Shown one piece after another: positions 2,532 to 51,231 of a stretch of 51,231 bases of DNA; the stretch's first letter is position 1, and every line of letters starts with the position of its first letter. A program made the position numbers and the translations under genes. The stretch lies in the IMG/VR virus record IMGVR_UViG_3300045988_044272; one strand, written 5' to 3'. Source of the stretch: a virus. The notes below the pieces were generated by a model, which worked only from the letters and a program-made list of their open reading frames with translations, was not told the DNA's origin and searched no databases.

Positions 2532-2912
2532 TTACAATGTGTTTAACAATAATGCGTTCAAATCTTCCGTAAACTGCAAGTATTCCTTGTATTCGGCAAC
2601 CGCATTATCATTGACTGAAACGCCAAGGATATGTTTGTTGTAAGAGTTTACAAGGTCAAATTCTGCCGTTTCGTCAAGAACGGAACGAATGATTACCCTT
2701 TTTAAGTTCGCCTTTGTCGGCTTGTCGAATGTGCGCACTTCATAACACTTCCAACCGACTTGAACTTCTTTTTCCTTACCTTCAGGAATGCCCGTTTCGG
2801 GTTCAATGTTGAAACGGAACAAGAAAGAACCGTCGTTGTCCTTTTCCAAAACGGCGGGTTTGCCATGCGCCATGTCATAATGCGCATTTGCTTCGATTGA
2901 ATTTAATTTCAT
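2532..2912 (-). CDS. Hypothetical protein downstream of the DGR RT (not Avd-like)
   Basis: 126-aa ORF overlapping the RT 3' end by 38 nt. Acidic with mixed predicted structure, unlike helical basic Avd. Confidence 0.5.
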   Translation of the reverse strand: MKLNSIEANAHYDMAHGKPAVLEKDNDGSFLFRFNIEPETGIPEGKEKEVQVGWKCYEVRTFDKPTKANLKRVIIRSVLDETAEFDLVNSYNKHILGVSVNDNAVAEYKEYLQFTEDLNALLLNTL

Positions 2913-3900
2913 ACGGGAATGTTTTTGAAAGTTTCTTCATTAAATTGATTGAATTACAGTATTTACACCATCCCCACCAACTGCATATCTGTTGTTTGTA
3001 CACCTCTTTTGTCGGGGCAATCTTGCGTTTGTTCAACTTTGCCACCCGGCGACAAAGTTTCTGCTTGATTGATTTCCGCAAAACGGTGTGAGAATGGTAA
3101 AATACATAGCCCAAGAAGTCAATCCCCCTTGAATCAACGGGAAAGACTTGGTAATTGCGTTTGACTTTAAGTTTCAAGCCACGCAAGTAAGCCCGGATTT
3201 CGTGCAACAATCCGTGCAAAATATCCTTGTTGTGTGCAAGAATCACAATATCATCGGCATAACGCCAATAATACTTCACCCTCTTTTCCTCTTTCAACCA
3301 ATGGTCAAAATATGCCAAGAAAAGGTTGGCAAAGTATTGGGAAAGATAATTGCCGATTGGCACACCCTCAACGGAATCTATAATTTCATCAAGCAATGCC
3401 AAAAGGCGGTTATCTTTTATTTTGCGCCTGACCACCTGTTTCAACAACTCATGGTCAATGGATGGGTAAAACTTGCGGACATCTATTTTAAGGCAATACC
3501 GCGTGCCATCCGGGTCTTGCTTCAATGCGTGCCTTAAATCCTTGGCGCATTTATGGATTCCACGGTTCTTGATACAAGAATAAGTGTTCTTGTTGAACAA
3601 TGATACCCAAATGGGTTCAAGCACGTTCATTATCGCGTGGTGCAAGATTCGGTCGGGATAATATGGCAACCGATAAATAAGACGTTCCTTGGGTTCGTAA
3701 ATCGTGAAAATGTGATACTTGGATGTTTTGAACGTACCGTTTTTCAAACTTTCGTGCAATGCAAGTAAATTGGCATCACGGTTTTTGTCGTGAATCATAA
3801 CACCATAAGAACGCAACTTACCTTTCCTCGCTTTTTCATCTGCAAGGCGCAAGTTTTCAAGTGAAATCACACGTTCATATAAATTTCCAATTCGTTTCAT
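2875..3900 (-). CDS. DGR-type reverse transcriptase
   Basis: RT motifs include PIGNYLSQYFANLFL (the DGR-specific I/LGxxxSQ) and RYADDIVIL (YxDD). It is adjacent to the TR/VR pair. The ORF track begins at 3918, but MKRIGNLYE at 3900 is the more plausible start. Confidence 0.9.
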   Translation of the reverse strand: MKRIGNLYERVISLENLRLADEKARKGKLRSYGVMIHDKNRDANLLALHESLKNGTFKTSKYHIFTIYEPKERLIYRLPYYPDRILHHAIMNVLEPIWVSLFNKNTYSCIKNRGIHKCAKDLRHALKQDPDGTRYCLKIDVRKFYPSIDHELLKQVVRRKIKDNRLLALLDEIIDSVEGVPIGNYLSQYFANLFLAYFDHWLKEEKRVKYYWRYADDIVILAHNKDILHGLLHEIRAYLRGLKLKVKRNYQVFPVDSRGIDFLGYVFYHSHTVLRKSIKQKLCRRVAKLNKRKIAPTKEVYKQQICSWWGWCKYCNSINLMKKLSKTFPYEIKFNRSKCAL

Positions 3901-4184
3901 TGTTTTACAATAACACAAGTTTGCTTGTATATTAGGATTCTTCGGGTGTTATCCCTACCAAAACCGTTTTACCTATTTCATTTTTTGCCGTTGGATTGCT
4001 CCAACTCATTCAACCCCGGTCGGGTCGTTTTTGTGGCAAGGTTTCCGATATGCAACTATATTTTTTACAAGCATAGCTGAGAACCGATATTCGCATTCGC
4101 ATTCGTAGCCGTATTATTCGTATTCGCATACACGAACCCTGCATTCGCACCATTATTCGCATTACCGCTGAACAAAACGCCACG
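3901..4184 (-). ncRNA. Putative DGR template RNA (TR plus 168-nt spacer leading into the RT gene)
   Basis: TR 4184->4069 is followed by non-coding spacer 4068->3901 directly upstream of the RT. In characterised DGRs the TR-spacer transcript is template and primer. Confidence 0.55.
4069..4184 (-). repeat. DGR template repeat (TR), 116 nt
   Basis: In frame it reads RGVLFSGNANNGANAGFVYANTNNTATNANANIGSQLC, with ten AAT codons and 29 adenines. It matches VR1 and VR2 except at adenines. Confidence 0.9.
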
Positions 4185-4234
4185 ACATCGGACAACCTTT
4201 TATTTCAAAACTTCAAAATCACATTTTATTCCGG

Positions 4235-5569
4235 CTATCTTGTTGAAGCCGTTTCGATTTGCTCGATTTGCGGGAAAAAGCAAAGCCGAGAACCGAAAGC
4301 CGCATTCGCATTCGCAGCCGCATGATTCGAAGACGCAGACACGAACCCCGCAGACGCACCAGTAAGCGCATGACCGCCGAACAAAACGCCACGTTCAGAA
4401 ACTCCACTTGCCGGAATGCTTGTGTAGAAGTAATCACAAAAATACGTTGTAGAACCCGCACCGACTTCAAGGGGCATAATCTCGCCATGTTCACCAAGGA
4501 TAAGTTTCTTCACATAACCCTCCCGTCTTGGCAAGTTACCACGTAATTGATAATTAGCAACTCCCGAACTTGTGAAATGCGTGGGGTCGTCACAAACGTA
4601 AAATTCAGACAACCCGCCATCTGCTTCCGATTGAATCAAGCATTTGCAAGCATCCGTCCATTTCCACAAATGCCCAAAAGGATTTTCAACGCCTCGATAA
4701 GATGGAACATTCACTTTGAATGGAACTGCATCATATTCCGTTGGCATTGTATATTCAACAACCCCTGTGTGATTGCCAAGGCTGTTTGTTGTACCACAAG
4801 GAATCACCGGGTAATATCCATTAAAATTGCTCCACTTCGTGCCATTCAATGTTGTAACACCCGCACTTAATCCGCCTTGGTGATAACCACTTTCATCAAG
4901 TTCGGCATTAAACGCATCTTGTGAATTGAATGTGCAATATTCAACAGCGAACAACCACCATAACTTGCGGTGTGTATGATACAAGTTGCAATTCCATTCG
5001 GTTGTACCACGCTTGCGGGCATACGCACGGAAATTAGTTAATGATATTGCCGTTGCGGGCATACCAAGTTGTGTCTTGGCTGTTCCATCACGTGAAGCAT
5101 CATTATTTCCACCGCGGTAATCCGCATCCATAGAATAAACAGCGGCAAGTTTGCTTGTTGAGCGTTGCACGGTCGCTTCCACGGCTGAAACATAGTCTTT
5201 GCGCCAAAGATGAAAACCGGGCAATGGTTGTGTTGATTGTAAATGCCGACATTTGTTGCCGTCCATTTCAAAACGTACATACATATTAGGTAGTTCAACC
5301 ATATATTGTCCGTCCTTGCCCGTCAAATCTGCCGCCGCGCCGTTATCACGTTTGGTTGAATCATTTGCGTGCAAATAATAATTTACCTTGCCATCATCTT
5401 TCAAGATGCAACGGCGCATCAATGATTGCAACGGCAATTCCTTGTGCAATTCCATCTTGCCTATTCGTGTCGGCTTTGGATTTGAAACGGTAATGTCCCA
5501 TTCAATGCCGTAATAATAATCATAGGCGAATTGTGGCTTCGTGCCACCTACTCCGATAAGTAAACCCAT
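4235..5569 (-). CDS. DGR target 1: tail-module variable protein with C-type-lectin/FGE-sulfatase-like C-terminus
   Basis: VR1 forms the last ~39 codons before the tail ...GVLFGGHALTGASAGFVSASSNHAAANANAAFGSRLCF. ENPFGHLWKWTD resembles the GNVWEW motif of FGE/CLec folds. It lies after the tail fibre genes. Confidence 0.85.
   Translation of the reverse strand: MGLLIGVGGTKPQFAYDYYYGIEWDITVSNPKPTRIGKMELHKELPLQSLMRRCILKDDGKVNYYLHANDSTKRDNGAAADLTGKDGQYMVELPNMYVRFEMDGNKCRHLQSTQPLPGFHLWRKDYVSAVEATVQRSTSKLAAVYSMDADYRGGNNDASRDGTAKTQLGMPATAISLTNFRAYARKRGTTEWNCNLYHTHRKLWWLFAVEYCTFNSQDAFNAELDESGYHQGGLSAGVTTLNGTKWSNFNGYYPVIPCGTTNSLGNHTGVVEYTMPTEYDAVPFKVNVPSYRGVENPFGHLWKWTDACKCLIQSEADGGLSEFYVCDDPTHFTSSGVANYQLRGNLPRREGYVKKLILGEHGEIMPLEVGAGSTTYFCDYFYTSIPASGVSERGVLFGGHALTGASAGFVSASSNHAAANANAAFGSRLCFFPQIEQIETASTR
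4278..4393 (-). repeat. DGR variable repeat 1 (VR1)
   Basis: Hand alignment to TR (offset 209, ungapped) gives 20 mismatches. All are at TR coding-strand adenines; none occur at the 87 other positions. Confidence 0.9.
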
Positions 5570-5570
5570 A

Positions 5571-5846
5571 TCAATAGCCCCATTTTAAGTTAATACCTGA
5601 CAATGATGTTTGCTTCACCGTCTTTACTATTTCGGGATTCCAACCGCATTCAAATTGCGTTTCTATGAAATCGCCATCACTCATCCCGGCAAGCTGCACC
5701 GATAACAACACGGGCTGCGTGCCGTCATTTTTGATGTTGAAACTTTGACCGTCCGGCAATGAAAAGTTCTTCATTGTCAATTGGTCAATGATTCCCATCT
5801 TTCCTATTTGGGCGGAAACGTGTTCGCCGCTTCTTGTTTCATTCAT
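5571..5846 (-). CDS. Hypothetical protein (tail-fibre region)
   Basis: 91-aa ORF ending 1 nt before the DGR target start. No motif recognised. Confidence 0.5.
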   Translation of the reverse strand: MNETRSGEHVSAQIGKMGIIDQLTMKNFSLPDGQSFNIKNDGTQPVLLSVQLAGMSDGDFIETQFECGWNPEIVKTVKQTSLSGINLKWGY

Positions 5847-24679: not shown

Positions 24680-24945
24680 AAATTGAACAATATTGCATTA
24701 GTCTTGGTATCAAGGATAAAAAGGATTTATCCGACAAGCAAATTGAAGAATGGGGACGATATTTAAGCCCCGGGGGTATTCTTTCTCAAATTTTTATATT
24801 AGGCACGGAATTAGATAAAAAAAATGCCGTTGCTATGTTGCGAACTGCAATCAATAACAACAAGCATTTTCAATATTCTTACATCATCAATGAAAGTGAA
24901 GAAGACGTTGAGTTAAAAGAAAAATTCAAAATATGGCTTGATTAA
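24676..24945 (+). CDS. Hypothetical small protein (island gene 10)
   Basis: 89-aa ORF. Its stop overlaps the stop of the convergent 910-aa gene by 4 nt. Confidence 0.5.
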   Translation: MKIEQYCISLGIKDKKDLSDKQIEEWGRYLSPGGILSQIFILGTELDKKNAVAMLRTAINNNKHFQYSYIINESEEDVELKEKFKIWLD

Positions 24946-27674
24946 GGTTTTGCCATATACTTTTCAATGATTCTTCGCATATCATCATATAATTGGGGCG
25001 CAATTTCTTTGAATATAGGGTTGCCGCCCCAATAGTTTTCAGAACAATGGGCGATAAATTCGGCAAGCTGTTTATCTTGTGTCCAATACTTGACATCATG
25101 CCCCCTTGGTCGGATGAATTTATGCCCGGAAATTGCAGCTTGCAAACAATCGGTAAATGCTCCAAGTTGTTCTTCAAATTCCATTTGTAATGCTTCTTGT
25201 TCTTCGCATTTCGCAAATAATTCTTTTTTCAGCCTTTCGGCTTCATCCATTTTGCCTATTTGTTTCAACTCTTGATATTGCTTCCAAGCATTATCCCTGA
25301 ATTTATCAAAATCAGCCCCGAATTTATCAAGTTTTTCTTGAATAACCCCTTTGAGCCTTTCTCCCTCTCCCGCATTGATAACCTTTTTCCAATCGTCATA
25401 AATCTTCATCAATTCGCTTTTAGATTTAAGTGCAATTTGATGGTCAAAGGCGTGTCCAAATTCGTGATAGAACAATCCTTTTCGATACCACGGTGATTTG
25501 GACATTCGTTGAAGATTATCATTTTCAAATGATATATTCACATATTTGTAAGTCGGTGAATAATGCGCACCGTTCTTTAATGCGACCAATGGAACAAAAT
25601 CTTTGAGTGAATCGAAAAATTCCTTGCTTGGCAATGCTTCCATCATGCCGGGTATCTTTTTTACATAGTCTGTAAAAATGTTGTATGGCATATTGGGTGA
25701 AATGTTATCAAATCCTATTTGCTTAACTTCTTTCAATGATGCAAGTTTATAGATGTTGTAAGCCTTTTCAATTTGCACATACACTTTCTCATATCCCTTA
25801 TTTACAAAATCATGTTCATTTATCGCCTTTATTGCTTCATTGTAAGCCTTGCGCCATTGAATAGGAATCTTTGTTGATGAAACACCTTTTAATTCCTGTA
25901 AATGGTCAATTGATTTGAAACAAGGTTTCGCTTGTCCGTTCATCAATGATTTATGACTTGACCAAGATTTCAATTCATAACCAAGCCATCTATCAGATTC
26001 ACCATTCTTTATTTTTTCACGGGCGGAATCAATATAACCTTGGAAACGCGATTCTTTACCATAGAAATGTTCCAAGTTATCCATCAAAGTAGATAGACGT
26101 TCTGCATTTGTCGCTTTTGTCTTATCAGACTTAAATTGCCAATCAGGGGCTTTAATTTTAAGAACATCATCGTTGGATGCTTGATTTGTTGCTATCTTAC
26201 TCAACAAGTCTTGAAGTCTTTTCTTAAATACTTCTTTACCTGTAATCCAATCACGCTTATCACCTGTAATGGCGGCAATGTCGTTGAGTATTTCCGAAAC
26301 ATCAATATTATGTTTCCGGGCTTCTTTTATGGCTTCTGTTGCATCCGCGATATAATTCTTGTATTCCTGCATCACTACATCAACACGACCATGTAAAACA
26401 GAAATTGCATTGACAACACCGGACGGATTGCGGTTTTGGATAGCATCATCAAGGATGAATGTATTTAAGCCCCATTCATTGCACATTGCGCGGATTGAAG
26501 ATATTTGCGGCTTCAATTGGTCAAGCTGCCTTTGTATCGGGTCAATCTTCGGTTGGAGTGAAATAATATCCAACTTCAAGCCTTTGGACAATTGACCATC
26601 CTTGAAGTTGTCTTTAATGAAATAGGGTGTTGAAGCCCACTTCTTTTGTGCTTCTTCATGGTCTTTCACCCATTGCTTAAACCCGTCCGGCACATCGGTA
26701 ACAAGGTTCTTGGCTTCCAACTTCTTGTATTGCGTGCCATGCAATGCAGCTTTGAGGTCGCCAAGTTCATTTTCATCAAAGGTTTCTTCATCCATCAAGA
26801 TAGGCACGGCATAACACATACATTGCGGATGCCACCCCTTGAACTTGAATGTTTTCGGATAACGCCCAACCAACTTTTCACATATATCACACTTGAACAA
26901 TGGTTCATGGTTGCTTCTGCGAATTTCATAACCAACGACAAAATCAAGTGATTGCCAACGCAAGAAATCACTTTCACGATAAGCCATATTGATTTCGGAA
27001 CGTGTAAGGCGCATCGCATTCTTATATGAAGAACGGTAAACACCTTGTCCGGGGTGGAATGCTTTGGCGGCTTTTGACAACACAAGGTTTCCGCGCTTAT
27101 CTCTTACACGGCGGAACAATCGGTTTGGCTCTTTAAGGTTTTCCCTGACATCACGGGATAATTGGGCGGCATTGCGACCCTCGCCCAAACCTACATCAAG
27201 GGCGGATTCCAATTGTGCTTTGTATTGCCCTACATATTTCCAAACCCTTTGCGAAAGGTTCATTCCCTCAACTTTGCGTCCTTGGAATGTCTGTAACGCT
27301 TCCAAGTTGCGGTCTTGCATCTTCTTCAACCTTGCTTTGCTCAACTTGGACGTGTCCATTATTGAAGCAATGAAGCCATCATTCTTTTCACAAGCGAACA
27401 ACCATTGTTTCTTTGACCCCGTTTCAATAACTGTTATCATTCGGTCGGCAAGTTGCTTTGTTATACCTTGCATTACAGATTTAACACCGGGGTAATCATC
27501 AAAAGAAAAGGGTTTGTCGGGGTCGTATGTACCTTTTGCCACCGCCTTTGCAATCTCGGTGGTGGCACGGTCAAACAAGGCATTCACGGCTTGTGTGTAT
27601 TGTTCCGTTTGCCTGTAATGTGCTGCATCGTATGATTGAATCGAAAACCGCGTTGTCTTTTGTCGCTTTGCCAT
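24942..27674 (-). CDS. Polyvalent minor head protein: MuF/SPP1 gp7-like domain fused to a large C-terminal region with an HExxH metallopeptidase-like motif
   Basis: MuF-type region (LTRSEINMAYRES...GWHPQCMCYAVP, compare HPNCRC). C-terminal LFYHEFGHAFDH, with HEFGH encoded at 25452..25466. It lies two small genes downstream of the portal gene (a lipoprotein and a Cys-rich ORF intervene). Confidence 0.7.
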   Translation of the reverse strand: MAKRQKTTRFSIQSYDAAHYRQTEQYTQAVNALFDRATTEIAKAVAKGTYDPDKPFSFDDYPGVKSVMQGITKQLADRMITVIETGSKKQWLFACEKNDGFIASIMDTSKLSKARLKKMQDRNLEALQTFQGRKVEGMNLSQRVWKYVGQYKAQLESALDVGLGEGRNAAQLSRDVRENLKEPNRLFRRVRDKRGNLVLSKAAKAFHPGQGVYRSSYKNAMRLTRSEINMAYRESDFLRWQSLDFVVGYEIRRSNHEPLFKCDICEKLVGRYPKTFKFKGWHPQCMCYAVPILMDEETFDENELGDLKAALHGTQYKKLEAKNLVTDVPDGFKQWVKDHEEAQKKWASTPYFIKDNFKDGQLSKGLKLDIISLQPKIDPIQRQLDQLKPQISSIRAMCNEWGLNTFILDDAIQNRNPSGVVNAISVLHGRVDVVMQEYKNYIADATEAIKEARKHNIDVSEILNDIAAITGDKRDWITGKEVFKKRLQDLLSKIATNQASNDDVLKIKAPDWQFKSDKTKATNAERLSTLMDNLEHFYGKESRFQGYIDSAREKIKNGESDRWLGYELKSWSSHKSLMNGQAKPCFKSIDHLQELKGVSSTKIPIQWRKAYNEAIKAINEHDFVNKGYEKVYVQIEKAYNIYKLASLKEVKQIGFDNISPNMPYNIFTDYVKKIPGMMEALPSKEFFDSLKDFVPLVALKNGAHYSPTYKYVNISFENDNLQRMSKSPWYRKGLFYHEFGHAFDHQIALKSKSELMKIYDDWKKVINAGEGERLKGVIQEKLDKFGADFDKFRDNAWKQYQELKQIGKMDEAERLKKELFAKCEEQEALQMEFEEQLGAFTDCLQAAISGHKFIRPRGHDVKYWTQDKQLAEFIAHCSENYWGGNPIFKEIAPQLYDDMRRIIEKYMAKP

Positions 27675-34559: not shown

Positions 34560-35213
34560 TTAGAATAATTTTAATTGTGCTTGGTGATACAATAAGCGCT
34601 GTTTGGCTGCATTGAAATATCCGGGGTCAAGTTCAATCCCCAACATTTCAAACCCTAAATTGTGTGCTGCTATACAAATAGAACCCGAACCCAAATGGGT
34701 ATCAAGGATTCTTTCACCCGGTTTTGCATAATGCACCAATAACCATTCGTAAAGTTTAATCGGCTTTTCGGTTGGGTGTATGGTGTTTTGCTTTGCCAAC
34801 TCACAACGGTTTATTGTTACAACCCTTGTCGGGCAATCAAAAGATGAATATGCAAGTTCACAATCTGACATTGTTAGCCCGGTTTGCCCCTTGAACCAAC
34901 AAATCCAACCTTTCGTGCCTTTTGTCAAATTCTCCACAAAGTAATTCGCACCCCAAATTATTTGATTGCGCGACACTCTTTCAAGTTCCCGGAAATACTC
35001 ACGGGGGGGGGTATTTTTATCCCATCCTTTTTGCTCATGGGCTTTTCGGTTGTGTTTTGGGTTTTTGCACACACATTTCTTTTGACCATCAACCCCGATT
35101 CCATAAGGCGGGTCACAAATAGCAAGGTCAAAGGCATTGTCCGGCAAATTCCGCATTACTTCCATACAATCACCATTCACAAGTTGAATACCCCCGAATG
35201 ATTCAATTTTCAT
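34560..35213 (-). CDS. DNA methyltransferase (N6-adenine/N4-cytosine, beta class), no cognate endonuclease
   Basis: Motif IV ICDPPYGIG precedes the AdoMet motif DTHLGSGSICIAA. Contains a C9 coding-strand tract at 35003..35011. Confidence 0.85.
   Translation of the reverse strand: MKIESFGGIQLVNGDCMEVMRNLPDNAFDLAICDPPYGIGVDGQKKCVCKNPKHNRKAHEQKGWDKNTPPREYFRELERVSRNQIIWGANYFVENLTKGTKGWICWFKGQTGLTMSDCELAYSSFDCPTRVVTINRCELAKQNTIHPTEKPIKLYEWLLVHYAKPGERILDTHLGSGSICIAAHNLGFEMLGIELDPGYFNAAKQRLLYHQAQLKLF
35003..35011. repeat. G9 homopolymer (C9 on the coding strand) inside the DPPY methyltransferase gene
   Basis: acgggggggggta read directly. It encodes T-P-P-R (acc ccc ccc cgt). It is the longest G/C run I found in the window. 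Confidence 0.9.
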
Positions 35214-36152: not shown

Positions 36153-37220
36153 CTAAATTTTTGATAGCCAATACTCCCATATTCGGCTTGCGATTTGTGC
36201 CATCATCACGGGTGGCACCGACATTCCACAAACATAATGCGGTGGTTGCCCGGCAAAGTTGTAATCTTGCGGGAATGATGAAATGCAACACACTTCACTT
36301 TGCCCCAAGAACCGGGGTTGCTCAAAATGAATCAAGCAAGATTCTTTGCTTGCAAGGGTGGGGCAAATTCTATCCAAGTACACATAAGTTTGATTAAAAT
36401 TGCTTCCTTTGCCGAATAACCTTTCATTTGCCGCACCTTGGTTCAAATCACCTTTTTGGCGGTTATCCCATAGCAAACGTATTGTTTTGCTCTTTGCTTC
36501 ACGACCTTTGAAGTCTGCAACCTCACCAAACATTATCGGCTTTTCGTTAAAGTCTAAATTCAAAGCCGGAACAACATCGAACAAGCCTTGCGAAACAAGG
36601 AAAGGCGCGGCAATATCTTTACGCAAGCACACGAAAAATACACGTTCACGGCGTTGGGGAACACCCATTTTTTGTGCATCAAGCAACCAATGTTGGCAAT
36701 AATACCCGGCATCCTCGAAACCATCATAAATGCGCCTTACATAGTTCTTGGCTTCACCAAGTAGCAATCCTTTTACATTTTCCGCAACAACCACTTTGGG
36801 CTGTAACCTCTTTGCAAGGTCTATGAAATCGAAAAACAACGTGTCCAACACTTGTTCCGCCTGCCCCTCACGAAAATGTTTCATCTTACCCCAAGCATCT
36901 TCACGGCTTCCAGCTATTGAAAAGGTAGAACAAGGGGGCGAACCGTCCAAAATATCAAGATTGAACAATTCGGGTGGCAAATCATTTTTTTCTTTGAACG
37001 TCTGTATCGGTTCAAGGAAAGGGAAACGCGGATTGTGATTTTGGCAATAGGTGTACATCATACGGTGGTCTATCTCATTGCACCCTATCACATCAAACCC
37101 GGCAAGTTTGTAACCCATAGAACTGCCCCCCCCACACGCAAAACAAGAAAATACCTTGCCTTTGTCCTTGGTGAAGTCGGCACCTTTCAACGTCCAACGG
37201 TAATCATATTTGTGCATCAT
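36153..37220 (-). CDS. dcm: DNA (cytosine-5)-methyltransferase, no cognate endonuclease
   Basis: Motif I FSCFACGGGSS, motif IV GSPPCSTFS, ENV motif VVAENVKG, and QRRERVFF. Contains a G8 coding-strand tract at 37126..37133. Confidence 0.9.
   Translation of the reverse strand: MMHKYDYRWTLKGADFTKDKGKVFSCFACGGGSSMGYKLAGFDVIGCNEIDHRMMYTYCQNHNPRFPFLEPIQTFKEKNDLPPELFNLDILDGSPPCSTFSIAGSREDAWGKMKHFREGQAEQVLDTLFFDFIDLAKRLQPKVVVAENVKGLLLGEAKNYVRRIYDGFEDAGYYCQHWLLDAQKMGVPQRRERVFFVCLRKDIAAPFLVSQGLFDVVPALNLDFNEKPIMFGEVADFKGREAKSKTIRLLWDNRQKGDLNQGAANERLFGKGSNFNQTYVYLDRICPTLASKESCLIHFEQPRFLGQSEVCCISSFPQDYNFAGQPPHYVCGMSVPPVMMAQIASRIWEYWLSKI
37126..37133. repeat. C8 homopolymer (G8 on the coding strand) inside the C5-methyltransferase gene
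   Basis: ctgccccccccaca read directly. It encodes the GGG of motif I (tgt ggg ggg ggc). Confidence 0.9.
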
Positions 37221-42307: not shown

Positions 42308-42928
42308 TTATCTAAATAACAAAACTTGATTCCACAAATCAATAAATTGTTCCCCGAATTGGCGGGCGCGAGCGGACGTTTTGAAGCAAAGCCGAGAACC
42401 GAAATGCGCATACGCACCCGAAGCCGTAGTAAGCGTATACGCACACACGAACCCCGCAGCATCATCGGAATATACAAACCACGGAAACCACTTTTCTTGA
42501 TTCCTGTTTGAGAAATCCGGGGTGAAATCATCTTCTTTGTTCCATGCTTGTGCAATAGTGCAAAGACGGTTGAAAGCAATAATGGCTTTAACGTGTTTGG
42601 GGTTAAGCTCTGAAACCAACCTTGTAACATCTTCAAGTTGGACACAATTACCCGAAAGAATCTTTTTGGCAACGGTAAAATCTGCATTGGGCTTGCCACC
42701 AAGATATTCCCTTGCCTTTTCATAATCTGTAACCACTTCGTTGATTTCCTTGCTCTCAATCTCTTCAAGGGTAAAATCAAACGGGGTCAAGTATTCTTCA
42801 TCGTCTGAATCCACATCTTCGTTGTGTTCCTCGATAAAGCTCAACATTTCATCTGCTGCTTCACTTTTTGAATCGAACTTTCCGCAAATTTCTTGCGTTT
42901 TCTTGTTTGTCACTAAATACTTTTTCAT
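42308..42928 (-). CDS. DGR target 2: small acidic protein with no signal peptide and a C-terminal VR, in the early operon
   Basis: 206 aa with no signal peptide or TM segment and an acidic N-terminal half. The C-terminus ...AAGFVCAYTLTTASGAYAHFGSRLCF is encoded by VR2 and parallels target 1 ...SAGFVSASSNHAAANANAAFGSRLCF. Confidence 0.75.
   Translation of the reverse strand: MKKYLVTNKKTQEICGKFDSKSEAADEMLSFIEEHNEDVDSDDEEYLTPFDFTLEEIESKEINEVVTDYEKAREYLGGKPNADFTVAKKILSGNCVQLEDVTRLVSELNPKHVKAIIAFNRLCTIAQAWNKEDDFTPDFSNRNQEKWFPWFVYSDDAAGFVCAYTLTTASGAYAHFGSRLCFKTSARARQFGEQFIDLWNQVLLFR
42384..42460 (-). repeat. DGR variable repeat 2 (VR2), matches the 3' 77 nt of TR
   Basis: Hand alignment to TR 4069..4145 (offset 38315, ungapped) gives 16 mismatches. 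All are at TR coding-strand adenines (16 of 22); none occur at the 55 other positions. Confidence 0.8.
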
Positions 42929-51132: not shown

Positions 51133-51231
51133 CCTGTCTCTCCGCAATAAACCTTGAAAATCAAGGTTTTATGAAATAAGTACACGAATTTGTACACGAA
51201 AGCCCCAATATTGGGGCTTTTTTCATATCCA
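51133..51231. repeat. Terminal direct repeat, copy 2 (identical to 1..99)
   Basis: Same 99-nt string as 1..99. The window ends exactly at the repeat boundary, which fits circular-contig overlap or a short DTR. Confidence 0.95.

Follow-up and report, generated by a model that had tools for sequence, protein, structure and literature searches.

The 51,231-nucleotide (nt) IMG/VR virus record IMGVR_UViG_3300045988_044272, hereafter the window, contains a cassette that we read as a diversity-generating retroelement (DGR). Among natural systems for the targeted hypermutation of proteins, DGRs are the main one known, and gut phages carry them extremely often. We consider, with a probability of roughly 93%, that the cassette is an active, Avd-less DGR of Bacteroidales phages with two targets, the tip of a tail fibre and a small protein of the early region. 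On the minus strand it runs from the first target gene (target 1), which holds variable repeat 1 (VR1), across a 50-nt gap to the template repeat (TR), and then across a 168-nt spacer to the open reading frame (ORF) of a reverse transcriptase (RT), which extends from an ATG at 3900 to 2875. This gap, spacer and RT reading frame, proposed earlier from the letters of the window (the original prediction), were confirmed from the ORFs. The second target contains a further variable repeat, VR2.

A computed repeat search returned one 116-nt direct repeat, with copies at 4069-4184 (TR, minus strand) and 4278-4393 (VR1, minus strand), a spacing of 209 nt and an identity of 83%. The TR has 29 adenines and reads in frame RGVLFSGNANNGANAGFVYANTNNTATNANANIGSQLC, with ten AAT codons. 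Comparison of the two copies on the minus strand revealed 20 mismatches, all 20 of them at TR adenines (A>C 8, A>G 6, A>T 6). Differences were therefore seen at 20 of the 29 adenines and at 0 of the 87 other positions (hypergeometric P=7e-16). When the TR adenines were replaced by N, the resulting pattern matched only TR and VR1 in the window, with 0 matches expected in shuffles. VR1 forms an in-frame part of the 444-aa ORF at 4235-5569, at its C-terminal end, where it encodes residues 393-430, and 18 of the 20 mismatches are at codon positions 1 or 2. Every coordinate and count that had been proposed for this pair, including the 20 mismatches, the 0 of 87 and the ten AAT codons, was reproduced by the computed alignment.

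The same pattern of change was observed in related sequences. An IMG/VR scan with the N-masked TR pattern yielded 13 contigs. The TR was 100% identical to that of the window in 12 of them, and their 12 VR1 sequences all differ. A further 80 related loci were fetched via the target protein and 83 via a short core pattern in metagenomes, giving, with the window, 103 unique TR/VR pairs with 43 distinct TRs. Across these pairs 1735 of 2961 adenine sites differ (58.6%), compared to 65 of 8987 non-adenine sites (0.72%), so that the two classes of site did not change at comparable rates. Polymorphisms at non-adenine TR positions 3, 6, 10, 48, 54, 72, 76, 102 and 105 recur in the cognate VR, showing that information flowed from TR to VR in each lineage. 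In contrast, a polymorphism at TR position 110 has no counterpart in the VR, and two positions, 107 and 111, show fixed differences that separate the TR from both VR1 and VR2. On the 3' side, transfer therefore stops between TR positions 105 and 107. Just upstream of the TR, 21 nt (4185-4205, minus strand, AAATAAAAGGTTGTCCGATGT) are identical in a relative from Prevotella sp. MGM2, with diverged sequence farther upstream; this stretch could form part of the DGR RNA or its promoter. Simple scans of the cassette for sigma-70 promoters and terminators were uninformative, as expected for a Bacteroidales host.

Four TR adenines do not vary. In essentially every VR1 and VR2, positions 16, 45 and 107 (window positions 4169, 4140 and 4078) are G and position 111 is T, and 16, 45 and 107 are the only adenines of the window TR that precede a G. 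Within the window family, TR adenines in this AG context are G in 268 of 272 cases. The rule also applies at silent third-codon sites, with G in 70/72 cases at position 45 (GCA to GCG) and in 6/7 at position 36. The AG adenine is G in 18/18 cases in single TR/VR pairs from three crAss-like phages. Fourteen independent TRs from the same RT clade gave G 122 times, A 3 times and C or T never in this context, while other contexts keep A in 41%; 14 of 15 fourfold-degenerate AG sites in independent TRs are G. TRs of this RT clade often have AGC where the VR has GGC. For the BPP-1 bRT, the base 3' of the adenine has been reported to steer the error, with a G there directing dC incorporation and lowering the overall error rate (10.1101/2025.03.24.644984, PMC12875486). 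The window-family data point in the same direction and are far more extreme.

A probable explanation, better supported than the intracellular role raised below for target 2, is that in RTs of this Avd-less clade an A that stands in a 5'-AG-3' context is almost deterministically read as G. A competing account, which we consider possible but unlikely, is that A-to-G change at AG sites arises from selection on the protein (AGC Ser to GGC Gly, CAG Gln to CGG Arg) or from repair after integration rather than from the RT. Changes at positions 16 and 107 do alter the amino acid (Gly, Arg) at conserved scaffold positions, and the lowered overall error rate of the BPP-1 bRT at such sites counts in favour of this account. 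The phage also encodes a C5 cytosine methylase, so repair of the very-short-patch type is conceivable. However, protein selection cannot explain the silent sites, because no amino-acid change occurs at position 45, position 36 or the fourfold-degenerate sites, which behave like the others. The absence of C and T across the 14 independent TRs also argues against selection or repair, as does the finding that BPP-1 bRT errors at AG sites are almost exclusively dC. Moreover, there are up to seven AG sites per TR (in cr55_1), and pure selection would waste almost all cDNAs. If the RT does read AG as G, TRs could hold 'masked' guanines that keep the TR distinct from the VR.

The original prediction described a single target and overlooked VR2, which a looser scan detected at 42384-42458 (75 nt, minus strand) as a match to TR positions 42-116. 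VR2 differs from the TR at 14 positions, 14/14 of them TR adenines, with 0 of 55 non-adenine positions changed (P=6.9e-11). It is in frame near the C-terminus of a 206-aa protein, target 2 (42308-42928, minus strand; phrog_11581, unknown function), in the same frame as VR1, and target 2 resembles target 1 only over the VR-encoded stretch. Ten distinct VR2 sequences were counted in 11 related genomes; across them, 604 of 605 non-adenine positions are identical and 120 of 220 adenine positions are changed. Since the changes between genomes are confined to adenine positions, VR2 is a working target. Partial TR segments were also searched against the window for a third VR, and none was found.

An alternative origin for VR2 is that it is not an independent homing target and acquired its TR-like sequence by recombination or gene conversion with VR1. 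The two VRs do recombine as direct repeats, as shown by a VR2::VR1 chimeric gene in the Prevotella sp. MGM2 element. Nevertheless, we regard this origin as very unlikely. VR2 differs from the VR1 of the same genome at many adenine positions, its changes between genomes are at TR adenines with 604 of 605 other positions intact, it has the same fixed 3' differences from the TR, and its homology begins sharply at TR position 42. The evidence thus favours VR2 as a target of the DGR in its own right.

Target 2 is adjacent to genes for RecT, a metal-dependent hydrolase, DUF2303 and DUF2400, placing it in a recombination/replication module rather than in the tail module. A homologue in Phocaeicola phage PV4-TP1 also adjoins a DUF2400/TIGR02757 gene. 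The protein has no Pfam, PDB or PADLOC match and no signal peptide, and both in the window phage and in LoVEphage-like phages it is found among recombination and DNA-metabolism genes. It is conceivable, although we rate it as improbable, that target 2 is a non-structural intracellular binding protein diversified against variable host defence or takeover targets, in which case the DGR would not act on receptors there.

To our reading the DGR has been active recently. The same phage is integrated beside mutS2 in an independent 185-kb contig (prophage L184), and comparison of the two copies over 3901 nt identified 18 differences, of which 15 are in VR1, all opposite TR adenines. Outside VR1 the two are 99.9% identical. 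One could instead propose a fossil in which TR, VR and RT are real, homing has ceased and the VR differences are old. Activity was indeed read from differences between assemblies, not within one sample or by experiment, and the Prevotella sp. MGM2 relative is clearly degraded, with an internal deletion in its RT and its structural module lost. We judge a fossil to be slightly less probable still than the recombination origin of VR2, as the window RT ORF is intact with all its motifs, the TR is identical in 12 contigs whose VRs are all different, and so large a share of the few differences from a nearly identical prophage falls at TR-adenine positions inside VR1. These results point to recent homing.

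The RT (341 aa, 2875-3900, minus strand) matches Pfam RVT_1 (7.7e-21) and PHROG 1423 (1.7e-124). Its best solved relative is the Bordetella phage Brt (8ub7_A), which aligns end to end over residues 2-323 with 167 bits (E 5.8e-48), while group II and retron RTs in the PDB reach 74 bits or less. The DGR signature [I/V/L]GxxxSQ, which replaces QGxxxSP in DGR RTs, is present as IGNYLSQ together with YADD, and the equivalents of Brt Arg74 (R74) and Ile181 (I181), residues that promote adenine mutagenesis (PMC7826257), are conserved. The RT is of the DGR type, in agreement with what its two motifs had first indicated. That it belongs instead to a different kind of retroelement (retron, group II intron or defence-associated RT) beside an unrelated repeat pair deserves almost no weight: generic models do match it (group II RT at 121 bits, below the cutoff of 300, and DRT/UG at up to 107 bits), but Brt is far the closer relative, the DGR-specific IGxxxSQ is present, the TR is 168 nt upstream on the same strand, and Rfam found no retron msr-msd RNA or group II intron ribozyme domain in the window.

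Target 1 (4235-5569, minus strand) is a 444-aa, tail-fibre-like protein, probably a receptor-binding one, with a C-type-lectin-like variable domain, and matches PHROG 5302 'tail protein' at 1.7e-121. It sits at the end of the tail module, consistent with its proposed position after the tail genes. An AlphaFold2 (AF2) model was built from an 89-sequence alignment covering three subfamilies, two distant ones having been added, and has pLDDT 75 and pTM 0.82; a first model from a shallow alignment (32 sequences, >=84% identical) had pLDDT 28 and was discarded. A Foldseek search of the PDB with the later model returned TaqVP (5vf4; probability 1.0, E 7e-4) first and then Mtd, both DGR variable proteins. 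Against BFVD, the model's best matches were crAss-like tail fibres, with TM 0.88 to that of cr55_1, and numerous 'tail collar fibre' proteins. The motifs GHLWKW and FGSRLCF are present, and the VRs end in GSRLC. By sequence, searches of the PDB with the single protein and with the 89-sequence profile gave nothing significant. Collectively, the model supports a C-type-lectin-type fold that displays the VR. Of the C-type-lectin or formylglycine-generating-enzyme (FGE) fold of the Mtd type suggested originally, the Mtd-like fold held up in the predicted structure and the two motifs in the sequence, whereas an FGE domain was not detected by sequence. Target 1 would thus be expected to bind a receptor. 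Simple counting gives ~6e14 possible protein variants for target 1 and ~1e10 for target 2.

Two conserved genes flank the cassette. A 126-aa gene (2532-2912, minus strand) overlaps the end of the RT gene, and its homologue directly follows the target homologue in cr111_1 and Porphyromonas phage005, which have no RT. Upstream of target 1 lies a conserved 91-aa tail-module gene (5571-5846, minus strand); in Porphyromonas phage005, which lacks a DGR, the gene ahead of the target homologue is 60% identical to it. Both were considered as Avd and rejected: their homologues flank the target gene in RT-less phages and neither has a Pfam or PDB match. The 91-aa gene thus belongs to the tail module and not to the DGR. 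Most DGRs have the accessory protein Avd, although it does not define them. No Pfam match to Avd or another helical bundle was found among the ORFs flanking the cassette and ~27 small and medium ORFs across the genome. Because both flanking ORFs adjoin the target homologue in RT-less phages, TR and RT together form an insertion between two conserved tail-module genes. In cr111_1 (L178) and Porphyromonas phage005b (L180), no RT or TR is next to the target 1 homologue. This suggests that the tail protein family predates or outlives the DGR and that the TR-RT unit behaves as a movable insertion.

The spacer between TR and RT (3901-4068, minus strand) is a structured RNA, as seen by folding and with a covariance model. 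Its sequence is conserved in blocks among relatives. Twenty-nine distinct spacer homologues, folded singly, gave the same three-way junction, closed by a UGCC/GGCA stem and carrying two hairpins of widely differing sequence, with a nested hairpin in addition. RNAalifold run on a MAFFT alignment missed the two variable hairpins, which were misaligned; they were recovered by single-sequence folding and the covariance model. That model, R1, was built from four sequences and matches 52 of 68 loci (51 related loci and the window), in every case immediately upstream of the RT; the window has a single match, at 3921-4055. In the R1 alignment 97.5% of cells are paired, whereas shuffles give 81% and sliding the partners gives no more than 57%. 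Compensatory changes were observed in 19 of 24 pairs, and 0 of 500 shuffles reached the observed values. Because the alignment was itself fitted to the model, these figures are tilted somewhat in favour of the structure.

The Rfam family RT-17 (RF03020) matched the window at 3917-4043 over the full model length, with 31.9 bits (E 4e-4), below the gathering score of 40.4. Eight shorter related loci score 42.6-51.2 bits, above that threshold, and R1 links the window copy to them. The window RNA therefore behaves as RT-17 does and is a homologue of it, expanded by the insertion of two hairpins. In its original description RT-17 is a motif close to RT genes and was given no specific role (Weinberg et al. 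2017, PMC5737381); in the same work RT-10 was tied to the BPP-1 DGR and other RT motifs were speculated to serve other DGRs (PMC5737381). R1 did not detect the spacers of crAss-like phages or of Bacteroides phage Versailles at E<=0.01, and by eye these have only a short stem and an A-rich tail in common with the window spacer.

A candidate fold-back priming element, CAAGCA (3922-3927, minus strand), is predicted by RNAalifold to pair with UGCUUG at the 3' end of the TR (4068-4073). For BPP-1, fold-back of the spacer onto the TR 3' end and priming of the cDNA from an internal adenosine have been reported (PMC6182149). By analogy, the CAAGCA/UGCUUG duplex may prime cDNA synthesis at about TR position 111, a site that would fit the mapped transfer boundary. 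We propose that an RNA of the TR and its downstream structured spacer would be bound by the RT, that the spacer would fold back on the TR 3' end, and that cDNA synthesis would begin near TR position 111. The RT would copy the TR faithfully except at adenines, and the mutagenised cDNA would then replace the homologous stretch in two genes, namely the last 116 nt of the tail-fibre variable domain (VR1) and 75 nt near the C-terminus of the small early-region protein (VR2). Transfer would end between TR positions 105 and 107, and its 5' limit would be the end of homology to each target.

Several observations weigh against the reading of the cassette as an active two-target DGR, or against parts of it. 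The N-masked and core search patterns demanded exact non-adenine bases in part of the repeat, which favours the observed contrast in rates; retrieval by the target protein, which is free of this bias, gave the same result. The Foldseek TM-scores of target 1 to TaqVP and Mtd are low (0.25-0.45) despite the high probability, and sequence searches of Pfam and NCBIfam with target 1 returned no lectin, FGE-sulfatase or other domain. Target 2 has no assignable fold or function, and its PHROG label is that of unknown function. A GC-rich hairpin like that of BPP-1, common to the regions downstream of VR1 and VR2, was not found, and downstream of TR position 116 there is no sequence in common. Finally, the predicted duplex of the TR end and spacer has no covariation support, because the UGCUUG and CAAGCA columns are invariant in 36/36 sequences.

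The window ends are an exact 99-bp direct repeat (1-99 = 51133-51231), so the assembly is circular or terminally redundant and represents a phage genome of 51,132 bp. Across the circular junction the TR is ~13 kb from VR2, compared to 38 kb along the window. The genome encodes lysogeny and DNA functions (integrase, cI-like repressor, RecT, single-stranded DNA-binding protein and two DNA methylases) and structural and lysis functions (terminase, portal, major head protein, tape measure, tail proteins and a GH108 endolysin). The carrier is a temperate, siphovirus-like gut phage of Bacteroidales, 51.1 kb in size and circularly assembled. Its large terminase subunit (TerL) shares 77% identity with the TerL of Porphyromonas gingivalis phage005, a phage with a homologous tail gene and no DGR. 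A degraded relative with an identical TR is present in the Prevotella sp. MGM2 genome (NZ_BEWW01000299.1, L014). The mutS2-adjacent prophage, the MGM2 relative and the TerL likeness to phage005 together indicate that the host is a member of the Bacteroidales, probably a Prevotella-like one. The earlier remark that DGRs are known from temperate Bacteroides phages therefore fits as far as a temperate Bacteroidales phage is concerned; as to genus, the closest host evidence indicates Prevotella or another member of the Bacteroidales more than Bacteroides specifically. No DNA match emerged when 3.5-kb and 20-kb portions of the window were compared by megablast with 50,697 phage records, and a tRNA scan and an Rfam scan at gathering threshold over the whole window were empty.

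Other features of the genome and its relatives were noted. The MGM2 relative and a second locus, L012, are collinear with window positions 48948-42384 and then jump to 4358-3719 and 2929-2080. The MGM2 element has the VR2::VR1 chimeric gene where the entire 38-kb structural module would be, and an internal part of its RT is deleted. VR1 and VR2 apparently acted as direct repeats for this deletion, leaving a defective prophage with an intact TR. In IMGVR_UViG_3300045988_012044, ~3 kb downstream of the target homologue was scanned and a TR was not found; the DGR may have been lost there. In IMGVR_UViG_3300000304_000103 (L049), the TR/VR-like match runs for 284 nt with several non-adenine mismatches, which may reflect a duplication or other arrangement. 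The phage's two methylases, one a C5 cytosine DNA methylase (36153-37220, minus strand) and the other of the N6/N4 type (34560-35213, minus strand), may have anti-restriction functions. A 910-aa minor-head/head-morphogenesis protein (24942-27674, minus strand) matches the PHROG 'Bxa ADP-ribosyl transferase' over residues 202-359 (2.2e-85), which suggests a toxin-like domain fused to a head protein.

All the defining DGR features that could be examined are present in the cassette. Lineage 3 or CLec3 DGRs, known from relatives of Bacteroides and from crAss-like phages, have the order target gene (TG)-VR-TR-RT and no avd (Wu et al. 2018, PMC5758913; PMC7290462), and the RT of the crAssphage LMMB DGR, to which the window RT is 52% identical, was placed in lineage 3 by its authors (PMC7290462). 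Judged by its target-TR-RT architecture, lack of avd and GSRLC-ending VR, the window element appears to be a lineage 3 or CLec3-class-like DGR. The closest RTs in the phage collection (50-62% identity) are those of the crAss-like phage DGRs (crAssphage LMMB, cr55_1, cr56_1 and cr50_1). These share with the window a homologous target (36-43% identity, and the structural match to the cr55_1 tail fibre), the TG-VR-TR-RT order without avd and the same AG-to-GG behaviour. Unlike them, the window carrier is a 51-kb temperate siphovirus-like phage outside the Crassvirales, with a second target and a spacer RNA of a type that R1 does not detect in crAss-like phages.

Bacteroides phage Versailles (ON453897, host B. 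caecimuris) has a cassette syntenic with that of the window, in the order large tail protein, small ORF, target, TR, RT and small overlapping ORF, followed by lysis genes. Its TR/VR pair is 115 nt long, with 12 differences at TR adenines and 1 at a T. Its target and RT are only 38% and 44% identical to those of the window, and R1 does not detect its spacer RNA. The BPP-1 DGR (Brt-Avd, Mtd) resembles the window element in its adenine-specific transfer, in a VR at the C-terminal end of a C-type-lectin-like tail fibre, in an RT carrying IGxxxSQ as well as R74 and I181 or their equivalents, and in a structured TR-RT spacer with a predicted fold-back onto the TR 3' end. However, the BPP-1 RT is only distantly related (E 6e-48), and the window element has no Avd, an RT-17-like rather than RT-10 spacer RNA, AAT instead of AAC codons and two targets. 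In addition, the difference between VR and TR that resembles the initiation of mutagenic homing (IMH) difference is only two nucleotides, with no common GC-rich hairpin downstream.

The 'tentaclin' phages nd4 and nd12 are described cases of one TR serving two genes in one phage (PMC10743442), and phage-associated DGRs commonly have non-adjacent targets within 50 kb (Wu et al. 2018, PMC5758913). As in nd4 and nd12, the two targets of the window are different genes and the second VR is shorter than the first, but the tentaclin VR is N-terminal, whereas target 2 is an early or recombination-module protein with a C-terminal VR. Like Rfam RF03020, the spacer RNA is immediately upstream of the RT gene, and relatives of the window element pass the gathering threshold; the window copy differs in the two extra hairpins in its basal stem, at 31.9 versus 40.4 bits. 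The target protein family is abundant, with >5000 clusters matching in public data, and the element is almost certainly included in large DGR surveys. A published description specific to this element was not found; the class itself has already been described.

The element therefore adds one well-documented, very abundant family of DGRs rather than a new principle. It provides a clean natural dataset for open questions on Avd-less DGRs, and phage Versailles, as a cultured syntenic relative, would allow experiments. An RT-17-like spacer RNA of defined structure can now be attributed to an Avd-less DGR, and the 3' boundary of transfer has been mapped beside a candidate fold-back priming duplex. 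The population evidence that AG sequence context dictates the outcome at template adenines matches the laboratory results for the BPP-1 bRT in direction. If target 2 is indeed an intracellular binder, this phage DGR would serve something other than receptor recognition. The interest of the element thus lies mainly in its non-tail second target, the RT-17 assignment and the context-dependent reading of adenines.

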